Shown: positions 30,384-48,661 of the stretch, piece by piece | Layout of the letters: each line of letters starts with the position of its first letter | Numbering within the stretch: position 1 is the stretch's first letter | NCBI GenBank assembly: GCA_030604635.1 | Contig: JAUVVL010000001.1 | Location: 1 to 60,204, forward strand | Source: Desulfobacteraceae bacterium | GTDB lineage: Bacteria > Desulfobacterota > Desulfobacteria > Desulfobacterales > UBA11574 | DNA length: 60,204 nt | Direction of reading: 5' to 3' | Translations under genes and position numbers: made by a program | Notes under the pieces: model-generated | Databases searched by the model: none | Told to the model about the DNA's origin: nothing | The model's input: the letters and a program-made list of their open reading frames with translations, nothing else

Positions 30384-30397
30384 TTATTCACCTGAAT

Positions 30398-31177
30398 TTA
30401 TGGCAATATAATTTCATTGGCCCAGTCAAGAGCGTCTTTCCAAATAAGATCTAGCGCACGATAATGCAGCTCAAGTAAATCTGACTTGTCTTTTATCCAC
30501 CATTCGCCTTCCAACTTACCACTCGATTGAATCATTCCGTGTTGATTAATCTCAAAGGATATAAGCGGTTTATCCTCAAGTCCATCGCATTTTGATATCC
30601 TTTGGCACCTTTCACAAGTTTTTGGATCTTTCGAATTTGGATAAATACAATCCGAGAAACACAGCGTTCTGCTGGTACCATAGATAATACTTCCCTTAAT
30701 ATTACTCTGTCCATCACGTTCTGATGCCACTACGGTAAAATCAATATAAAATTTCAGACTATTGAAATCGAACTCGATTCGCTCTGGTGCAATAGCTACC
30801 ATGCTTCGTTTTTTCTGTTCACTACTTGGAACGGCCAAAATTAAAATATCAGTTATATCTTGCTCAAATTTTTCATTTTCAGGCGTAAGGTTCAGTGTAA
30901 ATTTCTTGTCATTTGGATTAATTCCCTTTTTTATCTTACCATTTTTATTTATATAGCCTTTTTTCTTTAATTCCTTCCAGATTTCCTCTGATTTTTTATC
31001 GTCTATCCCTTCAATCTTTGAAAAAGCTTGTTTTGGAACAGTCACAATTATATCTTTAAGAATAGTTCGGGCATTATCTAATTGTCCTTTTATTCCTTTT
31101 ACTTTTTTATCGACTGCATCTAATCTGTTTTTTGCCTTTTTGCTCTTTCCTGTGGGTTTATATGGATCTTCTGTCAT
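30398..31177 (-). CDS. Hypothetical Lys-rich protein with a C-terminal Cys cluster
   Basis: ATG at 31177 follows GGAAGGGGGG (the track ORF extends to 31258 and overlaps the helicase). CFSDCIYPNSKDPKTCERCQRISKC. Confidence 0.6.
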   Translation of the reverse strand: MTEDPYKPTGKSKKAKNRLDAVDKKVKGIKGQLDNARTILKDIIVTVPKQAFSKIEGIDDKKSEEIWKELKKKGYINKNGKIKKGINPNDKKFTLNLTPENEKFEQDITDILILAVPSSEQKKRSMVAIAPERIEFDFNSLKFYIDFTVVASERDGQSNIKGSIIYGTSRTLCFSDCIYPNSKDPKTCERCQRISKCDGLEDKPLISFEINQHGMIQSSGKLEGEWWIKDKSDLLELHYRALDLIWKDALDWANEIILP

Positions 31178-31230
31178 CGTAGTCCCCCCTTCCATTAATT
31201 GAATCATTTTCTTATTTTGTTCCCGTATCT

Positions 31231-34023: not shown

Positions 34024-34056
34024 TTAAGAGATGATATCAGTTCCTATTGCTAAAAT

Positions 34057-34731
34057 TTAACAAAATGAGAAAAACACATGAAACAGAGTTATCGGTTTTC
34101 CGACCGAGGGTCTGTTATGTTTTGAGCGGTAACAATTATCGAGATTCGTTAAGTTATCAACATGTTTCCAGTTGCCATCAAAGCATAGCCAGAGCAACTC
34201 TGTGTTTTTTATAAACGTGTCATGCGCTTTTTTTGCCCAGTATGACGGTGTTTCCGATTGGACGTAACCTAACATCCCTGCCTCATCCTGTTCACGTGCA
34301 TAATTTCCGGAAAGGAACTGCCTCAACCCATCCGGCCCGAGATACTTGTCCATTTTAGCATGAGTTTGAGAAGAGAGCCTTTTGGCTTCGAAAGGGTAGC
34401 GTGGATGCTTGCCGGCGCCTGTACGTTCAAATTCGATGTCCAGCTTAAGGCGTCGTTTTCCTAGCCTCCCAGGAGCATTGATTCTAGGATCGTCATGTAT
34501 TGCATAATAATGAGTCCATGAGGGACTTAAACGATCTTCTATCACATTCCTGATCTCTCTTATGAGTTCACCTGTAATATCTTCTTCCTCGGAATCCTGG
34601 AAATCCGGGGAATCAAGACGTTCATATCCCAGCCTAAGCAATTCAAAGACTTGTCTGCGAAAACTTTTATGATATTCGTGTCGATCATCAGAAGCGCTTG
34701 TGCGTACTTGAAAGCCACTGCTTATAGTCAT
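34057..34731 (-). CDS. PD-(D/E)xK-like putative nuclease
   Basis: 224 aa. IHDDP...LKLDIEFERTGAGKHPRYPFEAKRL (D-x17-E-x-K). Its ATG abuts the MTase stop (TAGATG). Confidence 0.45.
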   Translation of the reverse strand: MTISSGFQVRTSASDDRHEYHKSFRRQVFELLRLGYERLDSPDFQDSEEEDITGELIREIRNVIEDRLSPSWTHYYAIHDDPRINAPGRLGKRRLKLDIEFERTGAGKHPRYPFEAKRLSSQTHAKMDKYLGPDGLRQFLSGNYAREQDEAGMLGYVQSETPSYWAKKAHDTFIKNTELLWLCFDGNWKHVDNLTNLDNCYRSKHNRPSVGKPITLFHVFFSFC

Positions 34732-37700
34732 CTATTTGGTATCTCCGGTCATGGTCAGCTTTTCGGCAATGAATTCATCTGCATCAATGAGAGCCTGACT
34801 CTTAAGCCAGGAAAGTCTTTGCAGCGGTTTTGCAAAGCAAGTAGTGCGGCCTTCAAATAGCTTGAGATTCCGGTTAAAATATATCCACTGCCCCTGTTCC
34901 CTTAAAAGACTCTCTCTGATCCTTTTGAACTCTTTTTTTGTGTCCTGATCTTCAACCCTGACAACACTCACCGGACCAGCAGGCGGTTTTCGGGAATGTT
35001 CTATTTTTGCAATAGCTAAATCATTTGAATAGAAAACCGTAATGCGATGCTGATCTTTTATATCGCCGTTCAGAAAACTATCAAGTTCCGCTTTTAATAC
35101 ATTTGCGTATGCGCGCATTTCTGTTTCATCTGCTGGCATAGTGGCCTCTTTAGCTATCCTGCCTTCGTTCAGGTTTTTACGCACATGGAGCAAATCCTGA
35201 ATCAGCCAGCGTTCGCTCTGATTAATACCCATAAGGGCATAGACTCTTTCGTTTAACTGTTCCAGCAATGGCAAAGCATCAATCATTTCTTTACGCGGGT
35301 CGAATAGCGTATTTTGTGATTCCCTTGAAGTTGCCCGGACGAGTTCATCATGTAAAGATACCCATTCGGAAAGCTCATGGGAAGACAGATCATCAAGTGG
35401 AATTGGAAGATTCTCTATATCGCTATTGTTTGCGCGATCCCGTTCAATTCCCAATATTGGGGATGATAGAAATTGATGATAGATGAAAAAATCAGAGGCG
35501 AAATATAGAGCTAACGCCTTTAATAGGCTATTATCTCCAGGACTTCCAGCAATACCGATTTGTCTGTGCGGAACTACGATAAATTCGTCTGAAAACACAG
35601 CAAACCTTCGCGCCGCATCAACAATAATGTGTGGTGGATAGCATGCTTTTAGCGGTGTTTTCCCGCGCCCCTTTCTTACATAGGCTCTTGAAGCTACTAC
35701 AGGTTTCAACGCCTCTTTGGGAAACGCAAATATTCTACCGCACTTACTCAGCACACTCATATCTAGTTCAAGTTTGCCTTCTATTTCCGCCAAAGGTTCT
35801 ACTGGTTCTTTAGCATATTTTGTGCGAAGAACAATGCCCTGATGTATTATCAGTCGATGTTGGGCTTTGAATTCAGAAAACGATGGATAACGTTTTTGCA
35901 GGCTATTCAAAAGGTGTTTATCCCGCACAGAGCCCCACATAGCGAGCTTCCATGGCAGACTATCTCCCGAGGCTGCATCCATACGAGAAACCTCACGAAT
36001 TTCATCGGCATTGACGATAATGATCCATAGCTTTTTATCTTGCCTGTTATCAACCTGATACCGTGATAATTGATGAACAGCAAATGGGGCAAATGTAACG
36101 ATATGATGAGACGAGCAGTTATTGTCTTCTTGCCGAATAGAGTAAAAAAATGCTGCCGCGGGGCTTGTAGAGCCTTGAAATATAAGATGCCGGAGATTGG
36201 AAAAATTCACAATAGACCAGACGTCCATCCGGTCGAAAAATTGCTGCCTGAATTTTGTTGCATGTGTTTTGAACAATGTAACAGCAGGCAATAACAAGCC
36301 TACCACTCCCTGGCTGGAAAGATGTCGCGTTACTTCCCAGGCAAAGGCTTCGGCTATCTGATTATCGCTGGTTGGAAATTGATCTTTATTTTTCTTAATC
36401 CAATCAAGGGCAGACTTATCGCCTTTCTCTAGTTTATTAGCTTTCAGTTGTTTCCATGGAGGATTGCCAACGATCCAGTCAAAGCTGTTCCCTGGCTTGT
36501 TCTCCTCCCATTCCGAATTCGGCTTGAAAAAGCCGTCCTTACAACAAAAGATGTTCTGATTACGCAAAGCAGGCAGTTTAAATTTTTTATACCCCGGTTT
36601 TTCAAGGTCAGGAGGGCTAACATAATCAAGAAGTGTGAGGATAAGGCTGAGTTCTGTTACTCCGCATGCATCCTCGTCCACGTCCATGCCATAGATGTGG
36701 TTGGTCATTAGATACCGCAATTCGGAAGGTTGAAGCCGTTTTTCAGGATTCTTTGTTTGTTCTCGCTCAACAAGCCTTCTATAGCATTGGACCAGGAATG
36801 CCCCTGAACCGCACGCAGGATCAAAGGCTTTCATGCCCTTTTGGAATGGGCGTTTTGAGTCAAGTTCATCCAGGACAAAATTTACTAAATGAATAGGGGT
36901 GTAATAGGCGCCCTGACTTCTTCCCTTTCCTTCAGCGTGAAGAAACTGCTGATATACAATAGAAAGGGTCTCTATCGGAATATACTCAAAGTTGTATGCC
37001 TTGAAATCCAGATGCATCTGATCGGATTTGGGATCGTCGCCGAGGAAAACAGACGATACTTTTTGGATATGTTCAACTTTAGGGGCAGGCCGACCTTTTC
37101 TTGGAACAGGAAAAACGACTCCATTCAGCCAATCTTCAAGCCTATCGTTAACCGCATAAAAGCCCTCAATAGTCGAGTTGCGACCAAAAACCGATTCTTT
37201 ATCAATCGACCATTGCTCCAGCTTGCGATCTGAAAGGATTTTTCTATCTCTTAAATAATATAGGTATACAAACTTGCCGATAAGAGCGTGAGCCGTGTGT
37301 CGGGGCAATCCATTGCTGCGCAGCCATGTACCAAGGGACCTGAGACTTCCAAGTAATCTCCTGTCAACCCTCTTATTTTGAGGAATCTCTTTCTCCCATC
37401 TCGTCCACAGGTCCCCTTTGTTAATTGAGTCGGATGTAAAATCAGAAAGCTTTTCAAGGACTTCGTTTGTCCTCTTTGCGACTTTAAGAATGGATTGATT
37501 TTTGTCCTCACTCAATCTGGGGTCAAACTTGAAGCCAGGATAAAGACGAATAGTTTTTGGCGTTAGAACAATAAGAAATGGGACGATATTCTGATTCCAA
37601 ACCAGTCTGTGAAATTCTCTTGCCTTTTGCTCCGTGTCTGCCTCACATACATACACCACGGGAATTATAGATTCATGTGAGGGATGATTTCTCTCCGGTG

Positions 37701-37851
37701 TTTTTAATGTATAAACGCCGTGCAAGTCGCATTTTTCACTGGCAAGACGAAATATGTGGGAGTAACCTGGGTGCTCGTAAAGACGCTCACCTGAGAGATA
37801 ATATGGAGAATCAGTATAGTTCAGGCATCTTATAAGGTGATCTATATCCAT
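34732..37851 (-). CDS. Large gamma-class N6-adenine DNA methyltransferase (type IIG/IIL or PglX-like architecture)
   Basis: 1039 aa. GAYYTPIHLVNFVLDEL, FDPACGSGAFLV (motif I), IYGMDVDEDAC and WIVGNPPW (motif IV), with long N- and C-terminal extra domains. Confidence 0.85.
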   Translation of the reverse strand: MDIDHLIRCLNYTDSPYYLSGERLYEHPGYSHIFRLASEKCDLHGVYTLKTPERNHPSHESIIPVVYVCEADTEQKAREFHRLVWNQNIVPFLIVLTPKTIRLYPGFKFDPRLSEDKNQSILKVAKRTNEVLEKLSDFTSDSINKGDLWTRWEKEIPQNKRVDRRLLGSLRSLGTWLRSNGLPRHTAHALIGKFVYLYYLRDRKILSDRKLEQWSIDKESVFGRNSTIEGFYAVNDRLEDWLNGVVFPVPRKGRPAPKVEHIQKVSSVFLGDDPKSDQMHLDFKAYNFEYIPIETLSIVYQQFLHAEGKGRSQGAYYTPIHLVNFVLDELDSKRPFQKGMKAFDPACGSGAFLVQCYRRLVEREQTKNPEKRLQPSELRYLMTNHIYGMDVDEDACGVTELSLILTLLDYVSPPDLEKPGYKKFKLPALRNQNIFCCKDGFFKPNSEWEENKPGNSFDWIVGNPPWKQLKANKLEKGDKSALDWIKKNKDQFPTSDNQIAEAFAWEVTRHLSSQGVVGLLLPAVTLFKTHATKFRQQFFDRMDVWSIVNFSNLRHLIFQGSTSPAAAFFYSIRQEDNNCSSHHIVTFAPFAVHQLSRYQVDNRQDKKLWIIIVNADEIREVSRMDAASGDSLPWKLAMWGSVRDKHLLNSLQKRYPSFSEFKAQHRLIIHQGIVLRTKYAKEPVEPLAEIEGKLELDMSVLSKCGRIFAFPKEALKPVVASRAYVRKGRGKTPLKACYPPHIIVDAARRFAVFSDEFIVVPHRQIGIAGSPGDNSLLKALALYFASDFFIYHQFLSSPILGIERDRANNSDIENLPIPLDDLSSHELSEWVSLHDELVRATSRESQNTLFDPRKEMIDALPLLEQLNERVYALMGINQSERWLIQDLLHVRKNLNEGRIAKEATMPADETEMRAYANVLKAELDSFLNGDIKDQHRITVFYSNDLAIAKIEHSRKPPAGPVSVVRVEDQDTKKEFKRIRESLLREQGQWIYFNRNLKLFEGRTTCFAKPLQRLSWLKSQALIDADEFIAEKLTMTGDTK

Positions 37852-37995
37852 TAAGTGTGCCCTCCGTTCAAGGAAATAGCCTAATCAAAGCTTAAAACTA
37901 AACCTTTATCACATACAATCACTTTTAGTAAACATCCGTTCTGTTTAAGCTCTATGAAGACGGTTAAAGAAGTTTAATATCTCTACGCACTATTG

Positions 37996-38649
37996 TTATC
38001 TAAATTCCCTGCAAACCCATATAACTTTTCCAATAATGCGTACTCTGTTGATATCCTCATTCTCCAAATAAAGAGATTTATATTTAGTATTATCACTAAA
38101 CAAGACGAGTCCTTTCGGATGTTTTTCCACCCTTTTAACCATGATAGTGTCGTCGATTCCCACTGCATAGACAGCACCGGCCAATACATCTTTCTGGGCC
38201 TCATCAATAAGTACGGTATCCCCCTCTCTGAATTCCGGCTCCATGCTGTTGCCGAAAATATCCAGCAAAACCATTTTTTCAGCAGTCCCTTTTCTTGACA
38301 GCCAGTCCATTCTAAAGGAATAATATCCTTCGATTTCAGATCCGACTTCAAAAGAACCGCCGCCTGCACACAGCCTGGCTTTCACCTTGGGGACCTTTTT
38401 GAATTCAGATTCATTTGTACTGAAGGATTTAATGAAAACAGGGCCGATCCCCTCTTCAAGCCAATTGGGATTTAGACCATATTTGCGATAAAGCAGCAAG
38501 ATCCACCTGGCCGGAATTGAGTCCTTTTTACGGGCCTGGGTAATGGCTGACGGGTTGATTCCGAGAGCGGAAGCCAGCTCATTTTGATAGCGAAAGCCCG
38601 TAGCCTCGTAAACCTTATGAATAAAAGCGTCAAATCGAGTAAGGGGCAT
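37996..38649 (-). CDS. LexA/CI-like repressor (XRE HTH + S24 peptidase)
   Basis: 217 aa. QNELASALGINPSAITQARK (HTH), GNSMEPEF (Ser) and IMVKRV (Lys). Confidence 0.88.
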   Translation of the reverse strand: MPLTRFDAFIHKVYEATGFRYQNELASALGINPSAITQARKKDSIPARWILLLYRKYGLNPNWLEEGIGPVFIKSFSTNESEFKKVPKVKARLCAGGGSFEVGSEIEGYYSFRMDWLSRKGTAEKMVLLDIFGNSMEPEFREGDTVLIDEAQKDVLAGAVYAVGIDDTIMVKRVEKHPKGLVLFSDNTKYKSLYLENEDINRVRIIGKVIWVCREFR

Positions 38650-38685
38650 GAGGTTTGATGCATCCGTGTTAAAAAATAAATATAA

Positions 38686-38720
38686 TTGATATTTATAAAT
38701 TAAGATTTTATAAATATCAA
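38686..38720 (-). promoter_or_regulatory. Perfect 14-bp inverted repeat TTGATATTTATAAA-N7-TTTATAAATATCAA, 36 nt upstream of the S24 repressor start. Candidate operator.
   Basis: Read directly from the sequence, in an AT-rich promoter-like region. Confidence 0.6.
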
Positions 38721-38868
38721 GTTTTTTTCAAAAGAAAGTACTATTTACATTGAAAATACGATTTTCTTAGGTCTACGTTTTTGGTGTAAAAATTGACGGT
38801 TTGAGGTTTGTAAAGAGTGCTATTTTTCGGTTTTACTTCAGCAAATCAATACGTTAGTTTGATGCGAG

Positions 38869-38997
38869 TTAAAAGACCAGAAAGCGGCACAGCCAGGGAC
38901 TCTGAGCCTGTAGAGCTGCTCGCCACCTAAGCACCGCGCCACTACCCAGTTCGGGACGATATGGAACTTTTAGTTTTGTATCTTTTTTGATTTGCAT
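38869..38997 (-). pseudogene. Degenerate 5' remnant of an SNF2 helicase gene, paralogous to the start of 31231-34023
   Basis: MQIKKDTKLKVPYRPELGSGAVL versus MQIKKDTKVRVTYRPELGTGEVL. DNA similarity extends over ~100 nt by eye. It begins 13 nt after the stop of the 142-aa gene. Confidence 0.8.
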
Positions 38998-39010
38998 TTG
39001 ATAACGCCTA

Positions 39011-39439
39011 TCAACTCGATAGATTAAAGCTGGTAGTGTAAACCGGGAATCCTCTAATTTCCTGTTTTCTGGGAGTGCCAAAAATGAAATCAAGCGGGAA
39101 AGTCTCCCCTCGATATTCCACCCAAAAAGAGTCTCCCTTGACCAGCCTCCCTTTGCAAACGATCTGAACCTCGATTTTTTTCTTTTCAAGATCAGTTGCC
39201 GCGGATTGAAGGACTTTATGGATATCAAGGGCAACGGCGTGTCGCTTTTCCCGTTCCGCTAGATAAAGAACATCATCAATGCCCACAACCATGAAAGAAG
39301 AATACCTTGATAGCCCCTCAGACCCGGCATTAAGTTCCCGAAGAAAATCAAGAAGACCGATCTTTATCTCGTAAGGAGCTATACCATCTTCTCTATAAAG
39401 CTTCAGATATTTTTGTTCCAGGATTTCATAGCCTTTCAT
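39011..39439 (-). CDS. Small hypothetical protein coupled to the DUF1156 methylase
   Basis: 142 aa starting at MKGYEILEQ. Its ATG lies 1 nt after the methylase stop (TGAGATG). Confidence 0.6.
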   Translation of the reverse strand: MKGYEILEQKYLKLYREDGIAPYEIKIGLLDFLRELNAGSEGLSRYSSFMVVGIDDVLYLAEREKRHAVALDIHKVLQSAATDLEKKKIEVQIVCKGRLVKGDSFWVEYRGETFPLDFIFGTPRKQEIRGFPVYTTSFNLSS

Positions 39440-39440
39440 C

Positions 39441-42419
39441 TCAAACCTCAATGATATTGAGTACTTTGTTGATTGGTCCCTGAAAAGTAGGGTTTTTATC
39501 CAGCAGATACTCAAAAGAAACCCGGATATTGGGGATAACAGGCTTAAACTCGTTTAGCCACGGAACCAGGTTTTCGCCTGCCTCGGCAAGACCCATCAGG
39601 TAATGGAGAACATCGACCAGGGCCACGTTATCAAATTTGGCCTCCTCCAATTCAGGAAAAAGCAAGAGCTGGCTCAGGCTTTTAAATTTGCTTTTAAACA
39701 ATTTGGCCAGATCCGTATAGCGTTCATTCGGAAGCTTTACCTCGTAAGTCCTGCCTCGTTTGGCCCGGCCTTTTCTGATAACACCGGCTTTAATAAGAAC
39801 CTCGGGCTCCATAATGCCCCTGGTAGTCTTATGCACTTCATCACTTTTGATCTCTTTCCTGTCACAAAGACAGGTGAGATATATGTAACTTGCCGGATCA
39901 ATATGCTCAAGCTCCGAAGGGAGGGGCTGTTGAGTGGTGACGATCTGCTCCACCATCATCCGTATGGATGTAAGAGCTTCACCAAGAGGTACAACAGCGC
40001 CTTTATAGTCCACGATCATTCCATAATGCCTGCTGTAAAGTTCAAGGCATTTGCCAATGAGGATGATGTTGACGTCGTCCGGAGAAAGTTTTTCTTTGCC
40101 ATATCTTCCGGCCTCTATCATCTCAATTTCTTTACGGGCTTTCTTGCGAATTTCTTCTCTGACCCCGGCCCAGGATCGCTGCCGGGTCTCTGATTGACCA
40201 TTGCGCTTTTTACAGACATGGATAAGATCGTAGGCAATGGACTGTTTTCCCATGAGGTGGAGGGAACTTTCAGATTCTCCGTGTATGGGATATATCGCTT
40301 CAATCACAAAACCCGCATTACAGAGAGAATCCAAAAGGGATTCCCAGGCGCTCCCTTCCCTGTGATGGAAAGTAAACACCATTAAGCCGTCATCTTTCAG
40401 ATTTTCACAGCACCTTCGCCAGGCTTCTGTAAGACCTTCTTGATAGTCTGATGCGGTTTTCCCACGGGTTGGGTTTTCAATAATTTCTTCAGCCTTGGGG
40501 GTGATTTCCGGAGCAAAATGCGGGTATGTTCTTGAAAGAATCAGCCTCAGCCAGACATAGAAGAAATCAGCAAGTTCGGAGTAGTTGACGTTTCCGGCAT
40601 AGGGAGGATCTGTGATTACTAAATCTGCTTTTAAGGGGAACTTCATGTTTTGAGATGTTGTACAGTCAAGTGCACAATTTCTCCGAGTGCCCTGAATTTT
40701 TTCTTGTGAATTTTCAAAAACACTCTTATTGCCTATGATCTTTCGGTCAAATGGTTTTAAGTTATAATTTTTTCCTCTAATGATAGCATCAAACAAGGAA
40801 ATAAATGTTCCCATTCCTATTGAAGTTCCCCAAACGTTACTTTCACATATCGTTGCCTTGGGTTGAAAATCATGCCGAGCAAAAATCTGTCTAATACAAT
40901 CTCGTTGCCAAATATAGGTACAAAAGTCACTCATATTATTCAAAAGATTATAAAACCCGCTCAACAACATCTCCTTCAAAACTTGGTTCTCTTCTTCCCC
41001 AATAGCCGCAAGCAGCGTACTCAGGCACAACAACTGCCTGGAGTTGAACATCTGATGCCAATATGCATAGTGATGCTCTAACAACCTATGCGTTTCTTGT
41101 CCGTCTGGAATTTCACTCTTCGGATAAGGCAGCCTGTCCTTTTCCTCTCCCCACCTCCTCTCTGCATTCTGATATTTTTTGAGATCAGCAGGTGTGATCC
41201 TTTTGAAGAATTTGCCTCTGTTATTATGGATATTGCATTGATGTGCTATTATTTTCTTATGTTTCAAAAGGTCTCCATGTATATCCAATTCTTCTTTATC
41301 CCCCGCGCATTCCGCACAATAACCCTCTACAGCATAAGGCCTGGTTGGAAGGAGTTGATTCTCGGGAAGCTTTCGGATGGAATTAATAATCTTATCCTTG
41401 GTCCCGCAGGAAGGGCAAATAAAAGCGCCTTTTCCTGTATTTCCCTGTAAAGGCTTGCAGCTTTTTGAACAAACAGGACAAGACACCTCTTCCGGCAATG
41501 TTCCACGATACTGCCAGACAGCATAGCAGTGGGGGCACAATAAAATTGTTAGAGGAACCTTTTTCCTCGCCTTTTTTAAATTGTCTGGATTTGAACCATG
41601 CAAATTGTTGGTTTGCGCACACCAGGGACACTTGACGCTATATTCGATCGAATTATACGGCGCCCAACGCCTGTTGTTTCTTTCCTTTCCGACCGCATCC
41701 CTTGCATTATTTATCATCATGGATTTTTCGGCGACTAAAGATGCCATATCCATATCCAGATCGAATGTTTTTTTGCATTTGACGCATTGATAATCCGGCA
41801 AATAGCGGACGGAGGGGGACTTTTTGGCAATAATGTAATTTGGAAACAAAGGAACTTCTTTAAGGCAGGTAGGGTTCGTACAGATAGCCGACTTGACCCA
41901 GAAAGTATATATGATATCAGCTTGTTCGCGACCTGCCCCGCAACAGGGACATTCGGTTTTGTAATGACCGAGAAGTTCTTCCTTCAAAGGCTTTCCACTT
42001 GAAGTGGTCCTCACCTCCAGCCTCTTGAATGCGGCCTTTAGCTCATCTATATCTACCGGCTCCACTTCGGTCTTTACAATGAACCACGCCACGGGGCTGA
42101 GATCGATGCCGGTGACGTGACAACCCAAACGAAGGGCCTCCACTATGGTGGTTCCTCCGCCCATAAACGGGTCCAATATCCTGACTCCGTTGGTATCGGG
42201 ATCATTGGTGTGATCCTTGTAAAACTCAGTCATTATATCTGTTCCGGCAGGTTTCATGGCGGCCAGCAGAATTGCTCGAAATACGCACGAAGCCCTGCGC
42301 GCAAACCATTTGTGCATCTTGTAAATAGGTTTAAAGGCGTTTCTTTCCGGTATGGCAAGCCGGTTGATCTCGACAACCGGGAAACTTTCTTCAATAGCCT
42401 TTCTAATGCTGTTTTCCAT
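39441..42419 (-). CDS. DUF1156-type adenine-specific DNA methyltransferase with Zn-ribbon insertions (PglXI-like)
   Basis: 992 aa. The N-terminus FPVVEINRLAIPERNAFKPIYKMHKWFARRASCVFRAILLA is DUF1156-like. DPFMGGGTTIVEA (motif I), multiple CxxC pairs, and VITDPPYAGNVNY (motif IV). Confidence 0.85.
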   Translation of the reverse strand: MENSIRKAIEESFPVVEINRLAIPERNAFKPIYKMHKWFARRASCVFRAILLAAMKPAGTDIMTEFYKDHTNDPDTNGVRILDPFMGGGTTIVEALRLGCHVTGIDLSPVAWFIVKTEVEPVDIDELKAAFKRLEVRTTSSGKPLKEELLGHYKTECPCCGAGREQADIIYTFWVKSAICTNPTCLKEVPLFPNYIIAKKSPSVRYLPDYQCVKCKKTFDLDMDMASLVAEKSMMINNARDAVGKERNNRRWAPYNSIEYSVKCPWCAQTNNLHGSNPDNLKKARKKVPLTILLCPHCYAVWQYRGTLPEEVSCPVCSKSCKPLQGNTGKGAFICPSCGTKDKIINSIRKLPENQLLPTRPYAVEGYCAECAGDKEELDIHGDLLKHKKIIAHQCNIHNNRGKFFKRITPADLKKYQNAERRWGEEKDRLPYPKSEIPDGQETHRLLEHHYAYWHQMFNSRQLLCLSTLLAAIGEEENQVLKEMLLSGFYNLLNNMSDFCTYIWQRDCIRQIFARHDFQPKATICESNVWGTSIGMGTFISLFDAIIRGKNYNLKPFDRKIIGNKSVFENSQEKIQGTRRNCALDCTTSQNMKFPLKADLVITDPPYAGNVNYSELADFFYVWLRLILSRTYPHFAPEITPKAEEIIENPTRGKTASDYQEGLTEAWRRCCENLKDDGLMVFTFHHREGSAWESLLDSLCNAGFVIEAIYPIHGESESSLHLMGKQSIAYDLIHVCKKRNGQSETRQRSWAGVREEIRKKARKEIEMIEAGRYGKEKLSPDDVNIILIGKCLELYSRHYGMIVDYKGAVVPLGEALTSIRMMVEQIVTTQQPLPSELEHIDPASYIYLTCLCDRKEIKSDEVHKTTRGIMEPEVLIKAGVIRKGRAKRGRTYEVKLPNERYTDLAKLFKSKFKSLSQLLLFPELEEAKFDNVALVDVLHYLMGLAEAGENLVPWLNEFKPVIPNIRVSFEYLLDKNPTFQGPINKVLNIIEV

Positions 42420-43399
42420 TATTGATTTACCTTAAGTTCGATCCAGGGCGTTATCATTTCCATCAATGACAGCCCGCCATGCCTGTAAAGTCTGCTTGCC
42501 GCTTCGCCGGATGATCTTGTTCTTACCCGGCCTTTGACCATGGCTAGATTTTGCGATTGGACTATAAAAATATCATCACTTGCAGGTGTGTCTGGTTTTT
42601 CTTCCAATGGAACATTCCGGTCGTTTCCAAAATAGGCGTTTAAAGTCTTCATTTCAGATGGGCTTCGGGGAAAATCCATCCCTGTTCCGAAAAAAATGTA
42701 TCCATGGTCGCTTGTGATAATGATCTTCTCTTTTCCTTTTATGGACTGGACAGTATTGATCCAAGCTGTTTCAAAAAGAGCATGGATATTCTCAAAGTGG
42801 CCCTCAAATTTGGCTCCGCTGTCTTTGTACGTTACATCCGGGAATGAAGACCATACAAGCAGCGGGGAATTTTGATACTCCCCTGAAATGGGGTGGGTAA
42901 TATTCTTGCTGTAGATCGTGACAATTCCTTTTTCTTTGAGCTCTTTTCTGGTTTCAAGCTGAGACGGCGCAATATGACCACAGGGGAGTTCCCGGTGGAT
43001 AAAATCGATGGTTTCGCTGGGTATGGCGGCCTGCGATGCACCTGTCAAAGAAACGGGAAGCCCTGATTTATCTGCAAGGGTCAAAATCATCGGCACTTCT
43101 CTGATGGACAGCCCGTCGAAAACAACTACCGCAGTATCAGGATCGGAGAGCGCTTCCAGCAGATTTCCTGAGGTGTCCGGGGTAGAAAGAAGCTCCCCAT
43201 AAATCCTGTCAGCGGCTGACGCGACTAACATTTCAAAACGATTAACCTTTTCCTCTCCACCTCGAAGGAATTCGATTGGGCTTAAGTTGCGATAACGCTC
43301 AGGGCTCCATACCTCTTCCAGCAGCCACTCTATTATCCAAGCCAGACGAGGGCCTGATTCGATCAACCTGTTGAAAAGGGCCTGGTCCAGGGTATCCAT
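42419..43399 (-). CDS. Compact PglZ-domain (alkaline-phosphatase superfamily) protein
   Basis: 326 aa. VVVFDGLSIRE, IPSET, IITSDHGY and YRHGGLSLMEMITP. Its stop overlaps the methylase start (TAATG). Confidence 0.75.
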   Translation of the reverse strand: MDTLDQALFNRLIESGPRLAWIIEWLLEEVWSPERYRNLSPIEFLRGGEEKVNRFEMLVASAADRIYGELLSTPDTSGNLLEALSDPDTAVVVFDGLSIREVPMILTLADKSGLPVSLTGASQAAIPSETIDFIHRELPCGHIAPSQLETRKELKEKGIVTIYSKNITHPISGEYQNSPLLVWSSFPDVTYKDSGAKFEGHFENIHALFETAWINTVQSIKGKEKIIITSDHGYIFFGTGMDFPRSPSEMKTLNAYFGNDRNVPLEEKPDTPASDDIFIVQSQNLAMVKGRVRTRSSGEAASRLYRHGGLSLMEMITPWIELKVNQ

Positions 43400-43402
43400 T
43401 TT

Positions 43403-46063
43403 TCACCTCTTTGCCTGTTTTAAGACTTCCACTTCCAGGTCCACAGAAAAATCGGCATCATTAATGACCGGAAGTGATTCAATCTGCTGCTCAATCTGTG
43501 ATTTCGAGAATGTTCCGGTCTTTGAGATGACAATTTCTGCCGTAATATCACCCTCACCGCTGAGAGATCCCCTAATACCAGAAGAAATGGTGCTGAGATC
43601 GCCGATATTGGTTTTTTGCAGGAATATTTTGTAAGTAACTTTGGTAATGATCCCCTCCTCGCAGTCCTGGAGCCTGAAAGCTGTCTCTTGCCTGAGATTT
43701 ACGATACTGTTCTGAGGGGGTATTTTAATAGGCAGAATCTCCTTTTCCGGGCATTCACAAGGATCTTTTCCGCAGTTGGAACAGACCGCAGGAGGTGTCG
43801 GACATTGGCAGGGGAATTCTCCACAAACCGGACATTTCTGAGGCGGTTTTGGGCATTGGCAGGGGAATTCCCCACATTTGGAACATGGCTCCGGTTTTGA
43901 TGGTTCTTCAAAAGGATCGGTCACTTTGGCATTGAATAGTTCGGTTTCATTCAGAGTAGGGCTGACATGGCAAAAGTTTCCCGCGCTATGCTGAATGCCG
44001 ATAACACCCTCCTTGCAAAGATTGCGTATGGCACTTGAAACGGCTCTTACAATCAGGGGAACAGGAAAACCGAGGGTAGCCCGATATTCGGCGTCTATCT
44101 CCTTGACCAAAAGATTCTTTATCTGGTCGAGCCTACCCTCGAGATGTTCCTTGAAGCGCAACATCGGGAAATAGTCCTGATTTAGCTTTTCCAAAACTTT
44201 ATCTTTTGAAAGATCTCCGGGAAGAGGTTCAAGCTCCACCTGGTCTTCAGCGACTGAACTTCCATACTTTTCCCAGCTTACAAAGACCAGACCGGCCTTC
44301 TTGATCCTTTCGATGATATACCTTTTATCCGTACCGGCAATGCGATGATAATCGTTTCGCCGAGCCGTATTTTTCGTACTTTCCGCCAGGTCCTTCGCTG
44401 CAAGAAGTCGTTTAGCCCACTTGAGCAAGTCCTTATCGTTTGCGATTTGAAATCTATCATCCTTTGGTTCCAAAAGAAGAATCATGTTTCTGACATCCAT
44501 TCCATAATAAATCTGATGCCTTTCCTCTCGAGTGAGCCTTCGACCTGTTAAAACATAGCGGAGGCGGGATTTATCGAACTGTTTTAATAATTCCTGGGCT
44601 TGTTCTATTGAATCGAAAATAACCGTATTTACAGCTTCCCTGAATATGTCCGCCTTCAGAATCACATATAATTCCTCGCGGGCCTGCGCATCCGAATATT
44701 GAAGGGATTTGAATTCTACTTTTGCTTCGGAATTTTCTTCCAGGTCAAAATAGTAGCGGCCTTCCTGGTGATGAAAGTAGGAGGCGTACTTTTGAAAGCC
44801 CATCAATGTTTGTTCAATGTCATTGATATCCGTTGAAGGCGATAAAATATCCCGGACGAGATTTTCCCTGGCAACACCGGTATCGGCTCCAACACCGGTC
44901 AATGTATAAAGAAGAACGGCAGGCGCCAGCTGGCGGGCTAGTGGCGTTCTGGGAATAAGATCTTCCATGTTCTCTTTGGCACGGTTGATCAGGTCACCGC
45001 TCAAGTCAAGATCTTTCAACATAATCGCAGTGGCCTTATCCTCAAGGGAAACATCACCAGGTGTTATGATATCATTTCCGGTATGGGTTAATCTGATCAG
45101 GTTGCCGAGAAAGGCTAAAGCGCCACGTACGTTTTGAAAACCTCCCCTTGCCGGTATTTTTTTGAGGATAATCTCCATGAGAGATGGCGAGAAAGGATAA
45201 GTATCGTTGAATTTGGCTTTGAGCTCTTCCTGGTCAACCGGCGCATGCCTGTTCCACAATTGGATGTAACTCCCAAGCACCGGCAAAATAGAAGCTCTGT
45301 CAAACTGTTTATAGTTTTCAAAAAGCCTGTGCAAAATAATGTGGCTCTGGTCTTTGGCGTTATCAAATTGAACCACGCATCGAGGAACACGTTTCAGGGT
45401 ACTGCCCGGTTCTTGCTGAGTGCTGTATATACTCGCAAATAGGGTTACCTGTCTTGAACGGTTACTAAATTCAGAAAGCATCTGAAGAAAGGCTATATTC
45501 TGGGCTTGTAGTGCGGGATCACCAATGACCTTGATGCCTTGCTCCAGCTCATCGAAGATCAGGATGATCTTTTTATCTCCAAGGGCTTTCTCAAATTCAG
45601 ACAATTTCGGATGAGTCTTGCCCTTCTTAACCTCTGTTCCAAGTGCCTCGAATATCATATTCCAGATGGAATCATGAGGATCATCGGTGAACTTATTGAT
45701 TAGCACAACAGCATCCTGGAAAATCTCACATGATAATCCATTTTCATTGAGCCATCCCTGAGCAACCTGGGGGTGTTTAAACAAATGGTAAATCATCAAA
45801 AGCAGGTGGGATTTACCACTGCCTTTGAGGCCCTCGAAAAGAAAAAGCCCGGAAGAATCCCTTGAAGATGAAAAACGAACATTGATTTCATACAGGACCT
45901 TTTTGACATCCGAAGTAGGGTAAGTAAGTTGGAAAAAATCATCCGGGCGAGCCTCGATTTTGGTTCTGGATTCATCTTTCAAGTTCGCCAGATCGATAAT
46001 TCCTTCAATTCCCTCTTCAGAAATCGCCTCTTGCCGTGGTTTCAGAAATGCGGAGTAGCCCAT
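43403..46063 (-). CDS. DUF499-type P-loop ATPase (BrxC/PglY-like)
   Basis: 886 aa. Walker A GLKGSGKSHLLL and Walker B ILIFDELEQG. Three tandem CxxCG(E/K)(F/D)PC(Q/E)CP units sit near the C-terminus. Confidence 0.75.
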   Translation of the reverse strand: MGYSAFLKPRQEAISEEGIEGIIDLANLKDESRTKIEARPDDFFQLTYPTSDVKKVLYEINVRFSSSRDSSGLFLFEGLKGSGKSHLLLMIYHLFKHPQVAQGWLNENGLSCEIFQDAVVLINKFTDDPHDSIWNMIFEALGTEVKKGKTHPKLSEFEKALGDKKIILIFDELEQGIKVIGDPALQAQNIAFLQMLSEFSNRSRQVTLFASIYSTQQEPGSTLKRVPRCVVQFDNAKDQSHIILHRLFENYKQFDRASILPVLGSYIQLWNRHAPVDQEELKAKFNDTYPFSPSLMEIILKKIPARGGFQNVRGALAFLGNLIRLTHTGNDIITPGDVSLEDKATAIMLKDLDLSGDLINRAKENMEDLIPRTPLARQLAPAVLLYTLTGVGADTGVARENLVRDILSPSTDINDIEQTLMGFQKYASYFHHQEGRYYFDLEENSEAKVEFKSLQYSDAQAREELYVILKADIFREAVNTVIFDSIEQAQELLKQFDKSRLRYVLTGRRLTREERHQIYYGMDVRNMILLLEPKDDRFQIANDKDLLKWAKRLLAAKDLAESTKNTARRNDYHRIAGTDKRYIIERIKKAGLVFVSWEKYGSSVAEDQVELEPLPGDLSKDKVLEKLNQDYFPMLRFKEHLEGRLDQIKNLLVKEIDAEYRATLGFPVPLIVRAVSSAIRNLCKEGVIGIQHSAGNFCHVSPTLNETELFNAKVTDPFEEPSKPEPCSKCGEFPCQCPKPPQKCPVCGEFPCQCPTPPAVCSNCGKDPCECPEKEILPIKIPPQNSIVNLRQETAFRLQDCEEGIITKVTYKIFLQKTNIGDLSTISSGIRGSLSGEGDITAEIVISKTGTFSKSQIEQQIESLPVINDADFSVDLEVEVLKQAKR

Positions 46064-46114
46064 TGAAAGCCTTTCACAAAAAATAAAAATTGATATTTTG
46101 GACAGGATTATCTG

Positions 46115-46158
46115 GATTATAATTATAATATTAAAGCATAGATAGCGATTTTATGTCA
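46115..46158 (-). promoter_or_regulatory. Candidate promoter of the DUF499 operon (TTGACA-N18-TTTAAT on the minus strand), with a perfect 14-bp palindrome ATTATAATTATAAT abutting the -10 and covering the expected transcription start
   Basis: -35 at 46153-46158 and -10 at 46129-46134 (reverse-complement coordinates). Palindrome at 46115-46128. Confidence 0.4.
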
Positions 46159-46289
46159 ATTTTTTTGTATTGAACATTAAAATGCATGAAAGAGTTTTGT
46201 CATCAGCTCCGGAGGTGGTGTTTGAGACCTTGAAAAAGGCAATAACATGTACACTGTTCCCTATTTTCCCCTGGCATCATTTGTATTCT

Positions 46290-46560
46290 GTGTTGCACTA
46301 CGCAGGTTTTGCCTCCAGCCGTTTCCGCGCCAATTCAACCGCTTTGTGAAGCTTTTGCTCCAGCAGTACACGTTTCGGTAGCCGGCGTTAACCGAAACGG
46401 CGACATTATTCCTGGCAGTTTCAATGAGCCAGCGGATATCACCGGTAAGATCGCCGGAAATGGACTTATTGTTTTTTTGTAATCCGCATCTTTTTTGAGT
46501 TTTCTTAAGAGGCTGGAAATATCCATAGCGCTTCCACGGGGGCTTTCGGAGACCACATAG
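46290..46560 (-). pseudogene. Mosaic remnant: a wHTH-gene fragment plus an internally deleted DUF1016 (YhcG-like PDDEXK) piece
   Basis: Different frames read MDISSLLRKLKK, GDIRWLIETARNNVAVSVNAG and LPKRVLLEQKLHKAVELARKRLEA. No continuous frame exists. Confidence 0.4.
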
Positions 46561-46561
46561 A

Positions 46562-47659
46562 CTAACTGGCTATTGACTTGAGACGAAACTTGCGCGTTAA
46601 ATCATTGTGCCATTTGTGTTGAATGTGTCCATCGCGTTGCAGCCTGCCAACAACAATGCCCGGGCAGATGTCAATGGATTGTGCAAAGGCGACAATGTCG
46701 CCTTTATAAAATTGCCTCTTTGCCACGAAAGTCTTGTATTTACTTTCAGGTATTAATTTGTTTGCCGCAAATCTATTTGCTGCTTCCTCAGCCTCGTTTG
46801 TGCCCATATCGACTTCATCGATAAATACACTGGTTTTTCCGTGAAGGATTATGTGACCTGCTTCATGAAAAAAAGTAAGCCAGAAATGGTCATCTCTCTT
46901 ATAGCGGAGGCTGAGCATGATCAACGCTTTATCCGGGCCGAGCCATCGCGTTACGCCGCTCAGACGGGTCTTTGGAAGTTCGGGAATAAATACAAGTGCA
47001 ACGCCGGAATTTCGACAGAGCTCTTTCATACGTGGCTCAAAAACCTCCGGGTCTTCCCCGGTAAGGAATCGTATCTCCTGCAATGCATTTTTAAATGTGT
47101 TCTTGTCGAACGGAGATGTTTTAATATTTTCCGCTTCAATTTCACCGATCCGGAGCCATGCCGACACCGATTCTTTTGAGCTTGTAAAGGTTGGTGATTT
47201 TCTGTATGAAACAGCAATGCGCTGAAACTGGGCCTTCCAGGCCTCTACGCTCGCAACGCCAAAGAAATCCAGAAGTTCTTCAACTTTTTCGGCAAGGGTT
47301 TGTCGTCTGCGAATAAAGCCTCTTTTCGCAAGCTCCGTCAGGGGAAATTTCTTTGCCCATTCTTTTTTGTTCTCAAGCATTCGCCGGTCGGCAATTTTAG
47401 CAACATGCAGCCGATAATATGCGTTAAGATTATTCCATATATTTGCAGATACGCCCAAAACCCGCTCGAAGTGAATAGCGGTTTCAGGGGTAACCGGAGC
47501 TTTTCCATGGATGATTTGGCTGACTGTCTTTAAGGATAGGCCGGTGCGTTCGGCAAACGCAGTCCTTGTTATCCCTCGGGCTTCAAGAGTCTCTTCTAAA
47601 ATCTTCCCCGGATGAATGGCGTAGTCGGGAGTATATTGATTCAGGGTTGTCGCGGCCAT
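46562..47659 (-). CDS. higA: HigA-type antitoxin: XRE HTH fused to an ImmA/IrrE metallopeptidase domain
   Basis: 365 aa. ERTGLSLKTVSQIIHGKAPVT (HTH) and FFHEAGHIILHG (HExxH). Confidence 0.8.
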   Translation of the reverse strand: MAATTLNQYTPDYAIHPGKILEETLEARGITRTAFAERTGLSLKTVSQIIHGKAPVTPETAIHFERVLGVSANIWNNLNAYYRLHVAKIADRRMLENKKEWAKKFPLTELAKRGFIRRRQTLAEKVEELLDFFGVASVEAWKAQFQRIAVSYRKSPTFTSSKESVSAWLRIGEIEAENIKTSPFDKNTFKNALQEIRFLTGEDPEVFEPRMKELCRNSGVALVFIPELPKTRLSGVTRWLGPDKALIMLSLRYKRDDHFWLTFFHEAGHIILHGKTSVFIDEVDMGTNEAEEAANRFAANKLIPESKYKTFVAKRQFYKGDIVAFAQSIDICPGIVVGRLQRDGHIQHKWHNDLTRKFRLKSIAS

Positions 47660-47994
47660 TAATGATAGTCCTCCACTCCAAGAATTTTGATTGCTGTTAT
47701 TTGTGTTAAGTCAATTCCGCCATCGTCCTTTCTTGGCAATGGCTCATGATCCGGTTTGAATATGAGACGATAAGGATGTTTTAAATCAACTGCGAATTGA
47801 CCGCTGCGTTTTCCGCTGAGTTCATGTCTTCGTTCAGGTTTTGTATACGGCACTTCAGCCAATACCGATGATGCTCTAAGTACTGCCATGCGGCGCATTA
47901 TCAAACGTGCTTTCTCTGCTCCGAATTCTTTTTTCAGCTCTTTTTCAGAATTAAAGACCTTCTTAAGAGTTTTATTTCTGAAAGCCATATCCAT
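47659..47994 (-). CDS. higB: HigB-like (RelE/ParE superfamily, 'killer protein') toxin
   Basis: 111 aa. HELSGKRSGQFAVDLKHPYRLIFKP. 1-nt overlap with the antitoxin, with the toxin upstream as in higBA. Confidence 0.75.
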   Translation of the reverse strand: MDMAFRNKTLKKVFNSEKELKKEFGAEKARLIMRRMAVLRASSVLAEVPYTKPERRHELSGKRSGQFAVDLKHPYRLIFKPDHEPLPRKDDGGIDLTQITAIKILGVEDYH

Positions 47995-48242
47995 TCTTTA
48001 AAATATCCTTTACCAGACAGGTAAAACATTTTCAAGCCAAATTTAATATTTTAATTCATTTAATCTCGAAAACCACTTCAATTACAGGGACAATATGCCT
48101 ATTTCCCGAAGAACAAAGGCAATAATATGTCTCCTGATTTCCCCTTTGATTCCTTTCCCCCTCTTCTGTCCGTCCGGGCTACAGCCGCTTTGGCTTCCAT
48201 AGTCACGTTATAGAATGAAAATTGTTCTACATCTTTTTAAAT

Positions 48243-48476
48243 GTAATTCAAGCCAACCGCCAGTGTCCGAACCTCTTTGACCCCACATGATAATTTTTCC
48301 CTCTTCTTTGAGTTCTCTTAACAGATTTGAAATATCCATGGGGCTCAACTTCGGAAAGATGTCCTTGAAATCCTGCAAATCACCTTTACTATTTATATTA
48401 AGATGGTTGAGTATTAATTCTTTTTTGCTTTTTACGTGAAATACCTGACAGCCGCCCCTTTTATTCTTGTGTTATG
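48243..48476 (-). pseudogene. C-terminal wHTH fragment of an AlbA_2/Fic-type regulator gene
   Basis: ...LNHLNINSKGDLQDFKDIFPKLSPMDISNLLRELKEEGKIIMWGQRGSDTGGW. Homologous to the remnant at ~46470-46525. Confidence 0.45.
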
Positions 48477-48661
48477 GTTTTGTCATCCTGGCTCGGTGTC
48501 GGGTCACCGCTGGGATGATTATGCACCAGAATAAGGGATGAAGCCGATTCCCGTACGGCAGGGTTGAAAACTTCTCGAGGATGGGCTAGGCTTTGGCTTA
48601 AAAGACCCACAGTTGGGCAACGTGCCTCTCTCCGGCTCGCCCAATCTTTTTCTTTCACCAT
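48461..48661 (-). pseudogene. RadC-like JAB/MPN domain fragment
   Basis: [38 protein letters not shown]. Truncated at both ends. Confidence 0.65.

Follow-up and report, generated by a model that had tools for sequence, protein, structure and literature searches.

Type-3 BREX-Related (BR) systems were named by Rakesh & Krishnan (Nucleic Acids Res, January 2026; PMC12839542), who defined them by comparative genomics in 569 taxa. Their parts are a DUF499 ATPase, a DUF1156 N6-methylase that in some cases carries additional Zn fingers, a Snf2 helicase whose nuclease fusion has been lost, an active stand-alone PglZ that is nearly universal and, in 82% of the taxa, a separate inactive STAND protein (iSTAND). 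Here we analysed a stretch of 60,204 nucleotides (nt) from a Desulfobacteraceae bacterium (GenBank assembly GCA_030604635.1, contig JAUVVL010000001.1, positions 1 to 60,204), which we refer to as the window. It contains a locus of five core genes that very probably is a Type-3 BR system. All five defining components are also present in the window and there is no difference of kind; the locus is a further example of an already described class. Compared with the published description, the window adds three tandem Cys4 knuckles in the ATPase and an embedded restriction-modification-like cassette with a duplication of the helicase head.

Three other described systems resemble this locus. BREX type 3 consists of BrxF, BrxC, PglXI, BrxHII, PglZ and BrxA (Goldfarb 2015, as summarised in PMC12839542). 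It shares with the window an ORC/Cdc6-like ATPase, an N6-methylase with an inserted target-recognition domain, PglZ, a BrxF-like inactive STAND protein and a RapA-like Snf2 helicase with a single Tudor domain. However, its ATPase is BrxC, whereas that of the window is DUF499-like, and the window methylase has an additional N-terminal DUF1156 domain, a feature that sets BR methylases apart from PglXI of BREX type 3 (PMC12839542). Its PglZ has long N- and C-terminal extensions around the phosphatase core, whereas the window PglZ comprises only 326 amino acids and lacks iSwi2/Snf2 or Ig-like domains. Finally, BREX type 3 encodes BrxA, and none was found among the proteins scanned around the locus (27003-55275). 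MANTIS, the Type-2 BR system formerly called Gao_RL (bioRxiv 10.64898/2026.09.23.753747), likewise combines a DUF499 ATPase, a small co-factor, a DUF1156 methylase and an SF2 motor. Its co-factor MtsB (DUF3870 in the preprint, DUF3780 in PMC12839542) is described as helical, in contrast to the P-loop-like iSTAND predicted here; its helicase carries an N-terminal PLD/HKD nuclease and no Tudor domain, whereas the N-terminus of the window helicase is Tudor-like; and it has no PglZ. Hma, the Type-1 BR system, is made up of three genes encoding the helicase-nuclease HmaA, the methylase HmaB and the ATPase HmaC, which provide the best PADLOC models for three of the five window proteins. The HmaA helicase ends in a PD-(D/E)XK nuclease; in the window, that part of the profile is left unmatched, and PglZ and iSTAND are present in addition.

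Core genes and their classification

Four of the five genes are arranged without interruption at 39011-46063 on the minus strand: the DUF499-type ATPase gene (43403-46063, 886 amino acids), the stand-alone PglZ gene (42419-43399, 326 amino acids), the DUF1156 methylase gene (39441-42419, 992 amino acids) and the iSTAND (DUF8076) gene (39011-39439, 142 amino acids counted from its ATG). The initial annotation of this DNA had described them as translationally coupled, and re-reading the open reading frames (ORFs) and the three junctions gave the same picture. Read directly from the sequence, ATPase and PglZ genes are separated by a 3-nt gap (agg tga aaa atg), PglZ and methylase genes overlap in TAATG (caa taatg gaa), and the methylase gene meets the 142-amino-acid gene in TGAGATG (gtt tga g atg). 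The fifth core gene, encoding a Swi2/Snf2 helicase of 930 amino acids, is located on the same strand at 31231-34023. Catalytic motifs are kept in all four predicted enzymes, that is, ATPase, PglZ, methylase and helicase.

The 886-amino-acid protein contains a Walker A motif (GLKGSGKS, residues 78-85) and a Walker B motif (IILIFDE, residues 166-172). It matches AAA_22 in Pfam, DUF499 (6.8e-14) and HmaC (6.6e-09) in PADLOC and, over part of the profile, DUF499_antiphage in NCBIfam (2e-19; 69 bits against a cut-off of 1200 bits). The PADLOC DUF499 match, too, is partial and under threshold. A PDB sequence search returned nothing usable. Judged by its sequence, we assign the protein as a DUF499-type AAA+ (ORC/Cdc6-STAND-like) ATPase that probably belongs to the DUF499 clades rather than to BrxC. 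The three Cys4 knuckles of the form CPxCGxxPCxC(P) are located in the linker preceding the C-terminal domain (residues 727-771, window 43751-43885) and go unmentioned in the published description of DUF499 ATPases (PMC12839542). Their copy number ranges from zero to three among close relatives (L001-L022), and the motif is absent from the distant clade.

For the 992-amino-acid protein, Pfam matched DUF1156 (5.5e-07; 30.1 bits, cut-off 24 bits) and N6_N4_Mtase (1.3e-11; 45.3 bits), PADLOC matched HmaB (2.3e-41), DUF1156_MTase (2.6e-33) and PglXI (2e-32), and NCBIfam matched DUF1156_antiphage (9.8e-42), far under its cut-off. An S-adenosylmethionine-binding motif (DPFMGGG) is found at residue 83 and the catalytic motif DPPY at residue 604. 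We therefore regard this protein as a predicted N6-adenine DNA methyltransferase with an N-terminal DUF1156 domain; the PDB sequence search again gave nothing usable. The combination of a DUF499 ATPase with a DUF1156 methylase had already been proposed in the initial annotation and is borne out by the Pfam, PADLOC and NCBIfam matches. Between the two methylase motifs lies an insert of about 500 amino acids with eight Cys pairs at residues 157-371 (window 41307-41951), enough for up to four Cys4 sites, whereas the Type-3 BR paper mentions one or two Zn fingers in the methylase. The pairs are positionally conserved in the close clade, and distant relatives have four to five of them. By analogy, the Cys-rich insert is predicted to be the motif reader.

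The motifs of the helicase are intact (GLGKT at residue 127, DEAH at 223, QRIGRIHR at 614). Its best PADLOC matches are HmaA (9.3e-104), which covers just positions 100-694 of the 1176 in the profile, and BrxHI|BrxHII (1.8e-102). In NCBIfam, it matches DrmD (5e-105) and the motor part of PLD-helicase only (640-835 of 895). Pfam detects SNF2-rel_dom, Helicase_C, ResIII and similar domains and no others. Because only the motor parts of the HmaA and PLD-helicase profiles are matched, the protein appears to have no fused nuclease. RapA is its closest solved relative (PDB sequence search, 6.3e-39), and its Tudor-like N-terminus aligns with RapA/BrxH models. Thus, by sequence, the product of 31231-34023 can be classified as a Swi2/Snf2 (RapA-like) helicase without a nuclease fusion.

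The same genes recur together in other genomes. We collected 80 genome loci with a gene for a relative of the small PglZ and looked in their ORFs for homologues of the window proteins. These loci span Desulfobacterota, Nitrospirota, Planctomycetota, Verrucomicrobiota, Ignavibacteria, Cloacimonadota, Binatia, Proteobacteria and other phyla. On every contig of sufficient length, the genes follow one another as ATPase, PglZ, methylase, a protein of about 142 amino acids and Snf2 helicase. An ATPase homologue precedes PglZ in nearly every locus whose contig reaches that far, the small protein was detected in most of the loci covering the stretch from methylase to helicase, and a helicase homologue follows the iSTAND gene in most loci extending far enough. 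This fixed order indicates that the unit consists of five genes and that the 930-amino-acid helicase is the fifth gene of the window. The suggestion that the locus is a minimal or distinct subtype of the DUF499/DUF1156 systems therefore holds in part: it is a distinct subtype, but not a minimal one, as the system is complete with five genes including the helicase. Apart from a ribbon-helix-helix (RHH) and PIN gene pair in one clade, no further gene family, such as a hidden BrxA, was common to the 80 loci.

Could the locus instead be a Type-1 BR (Hma) or Type-2 BR (MANTIS) system in which the PglZ-like and 142-amino-acid genes are unrelated passengers? The best PADLOC names, HmaA, HmaB and HmaC, would speak for this, as would the weak matches to the NCBIfam anti-phage trio of DUF499, DUF1156 and PLD-helicase. 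Yet the helicase is matched in its motor parts only, with both nuclease domains missing, and no DUF3780/MtsB-like gene is present. Moreover, all 80 loci contain PglZ, the protein by which they were chosen, and most of those covering the methylase-to-helicase interval contain the small protein; in the window, the latter is translationally coupled. We therefore consider such a passenger arrangement very improbable.

The stand-alone PglZ and the small iSTAND protein

The 326-amino-acid PglZ carries every motif that had been listed for it in the initial annotation: FDG at residue 94, PSET at 127, SDHG at 230 and HGG at 307. They are invariant across 16 aligned homologues of 58-87% identity, and the residues of the metal site and the nucleophile are conserved (D95, T130, D231/H232 and H307). 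The best PADLOC model is PglZ (2.3e-05). An AlphaFold2 (AF2) model (pLDDT 74.5, pTM 0.72) has six core strands, a three-strand cap at residues 262-288 and a helical N-terminal extension of about 85 amino acids. In a Foldseek search with this model, the best match was the PglZ domain of PorX (PDB 7pv7, 8thp and others; E=1.4e-08, probability 1.00), followed by the BREX PglZ of Acinetobacter (9zn5_B, 6.8e-06) and then by generic nucleotide pyrophosphatase/phosphodiesterase (NPP) and phosphonoacetate-hydrolase enzymes. A PDB sequence search with the PglZ profile gave nothing usable (best PglZ chain E=0.8). PorX PglZ and the PglZ of the BREX type 1 PglZ-BrxB-BrxC complex (PDB 9zn5) are thus the closest solved folds. 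They share the nucleophile Thr and the metal ligands with the window protein, at a sequence identity of 10-15%. In addition, PorX comes with a receiver domain and BREX PglZ with large further domains, whereas the window PglZ has neither, only its helical extension. From its motifs and model, the protein is predicted to be a stand-alone PglZ with an alkaline-phosphatase/NPP fold that is catalytically complete.

Its small size is genuine. Among 5.8 billion proteins searched, more than 520 homologues were recovered, and nearly all of the 120 listed are 322-335 amino acids long. When the PglZ profile was run against all 1.84 billion cluster representatives, 260 clusters were found; the best 150 matches are all 362 amino acids or shorter, indicating that the family is discrete, with no long BREX PglZ among those matches. 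This uniformity of length rules out truncation or an assembly artefact, in agreement with the initial annotation, which had treated the protein as a bare phosphatase domain.

Comparison with the published alignment "Type-3 BR iSTAND Representative_2" shows that its reference sequence and the 142-amino-acid protein are clear homologues. This reference starts with MKGYEIFEQK, contains FMVVGIDDV and VQIVCKGR and ends with FNLSS. The same reference is homologous to P0224, a homologue of the window protein. The index of Supplementary Data S3 labels the Type-3 BR iSTAND alignments "BrxB/BrxF-homolog", and the accession list of Representative_2 opens with CBX30016.1 from an uncultured Desulfobacterium (PMC12839542); the authors' own iSTAND alignment hence uses a Desulfobacterium orthologue. 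All 120 listed homologues of the window protein carry the precomputed Pfam family PF26277, named DUF8076 by one source, although a Pfam scan of the protein itself with E up to 10 gave nothing meaningful, the local Pfam copy returning no DUF8076. A PDB sequence search with the iSTAND profile also produced nothing usable. The protein lacks a Walker A motif and has retained a Walker-B-like remnant, FMVVGIDD. Its AF2 model (pLDDT 86) shows strands 1 to 4, three short strands, strand 5 and a terminal strand. Strand 4 occupies residues 90-95, the inserted short strands 98-101, 105-109 and 112-115, and strand 5 residues 124-128, with the protein ending at residue 142. This is the published iSTAND topology without the C-terminal helical bundle. 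On these grounds, the protein can be read as an inactive, P-loop-like STAND protein, the counterpart of BrxB/BrxF. Like the small PglZ, it belongs to a conserved family whose members are full length. The statement of the initial annotation that no BrxF-like gene is present does not stand in view of this homology. One iSTAND homologue, P0141, with 87% identity, is attributed to a metagenome-assembled genome of the archaeon Methanococcoides; it could reflect a recent transfer between bacteria and archaea or a binning error.

The same protein had also been suggested to be a divergent BrxA or a DUF3780 protein. BrxA is described as a helix-turn-helix (HTH) protein with three HTH domains and DUF3780 as helical (PMC12839542). 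The model of the window protein has a five-strand alpha/beta fold and is not helical, which excludes both identities.

These results also bear on whether the locus is a canonical BREX type 3 locus in decay, in which PglZ was truncated and brxA, brxF and brxHII were lost or disrupted. Methylase and helicase do match PglXI and BrxHI|BrxHII in PADLOC, and a 5' stub of a helicase gene exists. Against this, the 326-amino-acid length of PglZ is kept in more than 500 homologues and every top library representative, the five-gene order recurs in 80 loci from many phyla, the methylase is set apart from PglXI of BREX type 3 by its N-terminal DUF1156 domain, and the helicase is full length with intact motifs. 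Scanning 20 proteins (27003-55275) with PADLOC and Pfam revealed no BrxA-like gene, as had been noted from the start. Profile-based typing did not assign the locus to canonical BREX type 3 either; such an assignment had been named in advance as a possible refutation of the unusual composition, whereas in fact the best models were HmaB/DUF1156_MTase for the methylase, DUF499/HmaC for the ATPase and HmaA/BrxH/DrmD for the helicase. We give almost no credence to a decayed BREX type 3 locus, which the PglZ length distributions and the synteny already refute.

The displaced helicase, its cassette and the surrounding island

The helicase gene had been thought to be replaced by a stub. Such a stub does exist, a 42-amino-acid ORF on the minus strand (38869-38999) whose ATG at 38997 is located 13 nt after the iSTAND stop codon, where relatives begin their helicase. 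Its first 23 codons (38930-38999) are a 70-nt copy, 87% identical, of the helicase start (33956-34025), forming the direct repeat D1 with a spacing of 4974. The intact 930-amino-acid gene, however, shows that a replacement did not occur.

Between stub and helicase lies an inserted cassette of three minus-strand genes (34026-38929) that is not part of the core system. It opens with an AT-rich intergenic stretch and its own S24/CI-type repressor gene (37996-38649), followed by the gene for an MmeI/Eco57I-like methylase of 1039 amino acids (34732-37851), both recognized by Pfam/PADLOC, and by a gene for a 224-amino-acid partner that belongs to no family (34057-34731). The partner carries the motif LDIEFE...FEAKR, which looks PD-(D/E)XK-like by eye and has no profile support. 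The helicase starts 33 nt past this gene, as it does in two other loci, L081 and L082. The pair of methylase and ~220-amino-acid protein is found at the same iSTAND|helicase junction in at least three other Type-3 BR loci, L081 (6863-10675), L082 and L083. The flanks of L081 are near-identical to those of the window, and it has neither stub nor repressor gene. The pair also occurs at places without any BR genes (L084-L089), in most of them without a helicase. It thus behaves as an autonomous mobile two-gene module. We rejected the idea that this Type IIG-like methylase and its partner need or travel with the helicase, as the pair adjoins ileS, transporters and CRISPR loci where no helicase is present.

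Since the intact helicase lies beyond an autonomous module, it has been displaced by 4,974 nt and not replaced, and the cassette represents cargo: a separate restriction-modification-like unit in the same orientation as the operon, which left the helicase gene intact. The repressor gene and the 70-nt flanking repeat are found only in the window copy of the module. A cassette flanked by such a repeat resembles a mode of insertion known for restriction-modification units as "insertion with long target duplication". We also considered whether helicase-head stubs might be a general mark of cargo insertion and rejected this: none of the other 80 related loci has a duplicate or stub of the helicase head, and L081 contains the same module without one.

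The insertion could have uncoupled or silenced the helicase, rendering the system inactive in this genome. The position of the cassette between the iSTAND gene and the helicase, its AT-rich start and its own repressor gene would fit this view. Nevertheless, the helicase ORF and its motifs are intact, the cassette genes are co-oriented with the operon and the short distance to the helicase is the one seen in L081/L082; in addition, many relatives tolerate inserts of 0.6-5 kb at this junction. We therefore regard inactivity as unlikely.

Gaps of 0.6-5.9 kb occur in relatives at the PglZ|methylase, methylase|iSTAND and iSTAND|helicase junctions. Their cargo, named by reading ORFs and with Pfam support for PIN alone, includes Fic, HEPN-MNT, DUF3800, OLD-like ATPases, a Hachiman-like pair, REP-associated (IS200-like) tyrosine transposases and PIN toxins. 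This fits the published account of auxiliary effectors residing within BR loci (PMC12839542). In the iSTAND|helicase gap of L008 (15922-16524) and L011 (15892-16461), ORF reading shows a gene resembling REP-associated (IS200-like) tyrosine transposases, which in L011 adjoins a tandem repeat that reads as a repetitive ORF. These genes suggest a different insertion route at the same junction.

In 40 of the 80 loci, the RHH and PIN pair is located directly after PglZ and before the methylase; these loci all belong to the clade with a PglZ at most 45% identical to that of the window (within L033-L080; for example L037:6653-7398). The pair encodes an RHH-like protein of about 80 amino acids and a PIN protein of about 165 amino acids (Pfam PIN 6.4e-11), looks like a conserved operon member of this distant clade rather than sporadic cargo, and is missing from the window.

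Tentatively, Type-3 BR operons might be fixed docking platforms for defence cargo, with three junctions that repeatedly receive unrelated toxin-antitoxin, abortive-infection and restriction-modification modules, although we regard this generalization as doubtful. If it were true, the window would show a cargo exchange caught in the act, with recombination through the conserved helicase head as the swap mechanism, and the helicase would possibly be regulated by the S24-type repressor of the cassette.

The locus is part of an island (~28854-47994) placed between housekeeping genes, with S-adenosylmethionine decarboxylase and DUF3326 genes on one side and a run from Era to RNase III on the other. 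About 500 nt upstream of the ATPase gene and on the same strand, the island contains genes for a HigB-like toxin (111 amino acids) and a 365-amino-acid HTH/M78-peptidase protein (46562-47994; PADLOC PD-Lambda-2_B 1.6e-38), a pair that is not conserved in related loci. Downstream of the helicase (28854-31258), two genes encode proteins of 286 and 509 amino acids, the former with a GTG start and overlapping the 3' end of the helicase gene by 28 nt. Neither protein matched a Pfam, NCBIfam or PADLOC family or had a homologue in the 80 loci; both genes may be further island cargo. An Rfam scan of 28000-49000 gave no matches.

Proposed function

MANTIS is the only BR type with a worked-out mechanism and serves as the template for our proposal. 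There, loading and activation of the methylase MtsC depend on both the ATPase MtsA (DUF499) and the small co-regulator MtsB. MtsC hemimethylates asymmetric 6-bp sites, while a helicase-nuclease restricts unmodified DNA (bioRxiv 10.64898/2026.09.23.753747). In BREX type 1, BrxC binds PglZ-BrxB via the inactive AAA+ domain of BrxB, and BREX PglZ has been reported to be a metal-dependent nicking nuclease (Readshaw 2025, PMC12205998).

By analogy to MANTIS and to the BrxC-BrxB-PglZ complex, we propose that the DUF499 ATPase would bind DNA and, together with the small iSTAND, recruit and activate the DUF1156 methylase. The latter would N6-methylate adenines in a short asymmetric motif on host DNA, with the Cys-rich insert reading this motif. 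On unmethylated incoming DNA, the ATPase/iSTAND scaffold would engage the stand-alone PglZ and the RapA-like Snf2 translocase. PglZ, the predicted effector phosphodiesterase/nuclease, would then use its metal-dependent activity to nick or cut the invader, standing in for the helicase-fused PD-(D/E)XK or PLD nuclease of BR types 1 and 2. The iSTAND is accordingly cast as a predicted adaptor or sensor between PglZ and ATPase. We give this specific mechanism, ATPase/iSTAND-loaded methylation combined with PglZ/helicase restriction, an even chance of being correct.

That the four genes and the displaced helicase form one five-gene Type-3 BR anti-phage system is, in our view, probable. Several observations weigh against it. 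The literature searched contained no experimental report on Type-3 BR; defence, the methylation motif and the nuclease activity of PglZ are what we infer. With the cassette between them, the helicase and the other four genes need not be co-expressed, and a promoter and terminator scan of 30000-48500 gave counts equal to the shuffled expectation. The core proteins score far under the curated cut-offs of the nearest named NCBIfam families, and Pfam PglZ does not match the window PglZ at default thresholds, reaching only E=0.26 when E up to 10 is allowed. For the iSTAND model, Foldseek returned weak matches only (E at least 0.1); those listed are mostly P-loop NTPases (DnaI, RFC, p97 and RAD51 paralogues), and no BrxB chain is among the 50 listed. 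These P-loop matches agree with the iSTAND assignment, yet are no independent proof of it. The marginal PglZ score and the partial or sub-cut-off matches in PADLOC and NCBIfam also imply that such loci are under-called in defence-system censuses.

A different function would be that of a housekeeping or regulatory epigenetic module instead of an immune system, comprising a methylase, a RapA-like remodeller and a PorX-PglZ-like phosphodiesterase that acts on nucleotides or signalling molecules. PorX, with the closest solved PglZ fold, is a signalling-pathway phosphodiesterase, RapA, the closest solved helicase, is an RNA-polymerase recycling factor, and the lack of experimental defence data on Type-3 BR would be in keeping with such a role. 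However, the island places the HigB-like toxin, the HTH-M78 protein and the restriction-modification-like cassette between housekeeping genes, and in relatives the operon itself holds PIN, Fic, HEPN-MNT, DUF3800, OLD-like and Hachiman-like cargo. Related loci occur patchily across phyla, and the sister subtypes Hma and MANTIS are proven defences. An epigenetic module is therefore quite improbable, and we favor the anti-phage system.

The locus provides a clean, motif-intact example of a class so far defined by comparative genomics only. In Type-3 BR, the role of the nuclease, which is fused to the helicase in the sister systems, seems to be taken over by a bare PglZ domain. With five genes, among them a 326-amino-acid PglZ and a 142-amino-acid adaptor, the system would be a much simpler substrate than six-gene BREX for asking how PglZ acts on DNA, how an inactive STAND protein couples PglZ to an ATPase and how general MANTIS-like ATPase-loaded methylation may be.

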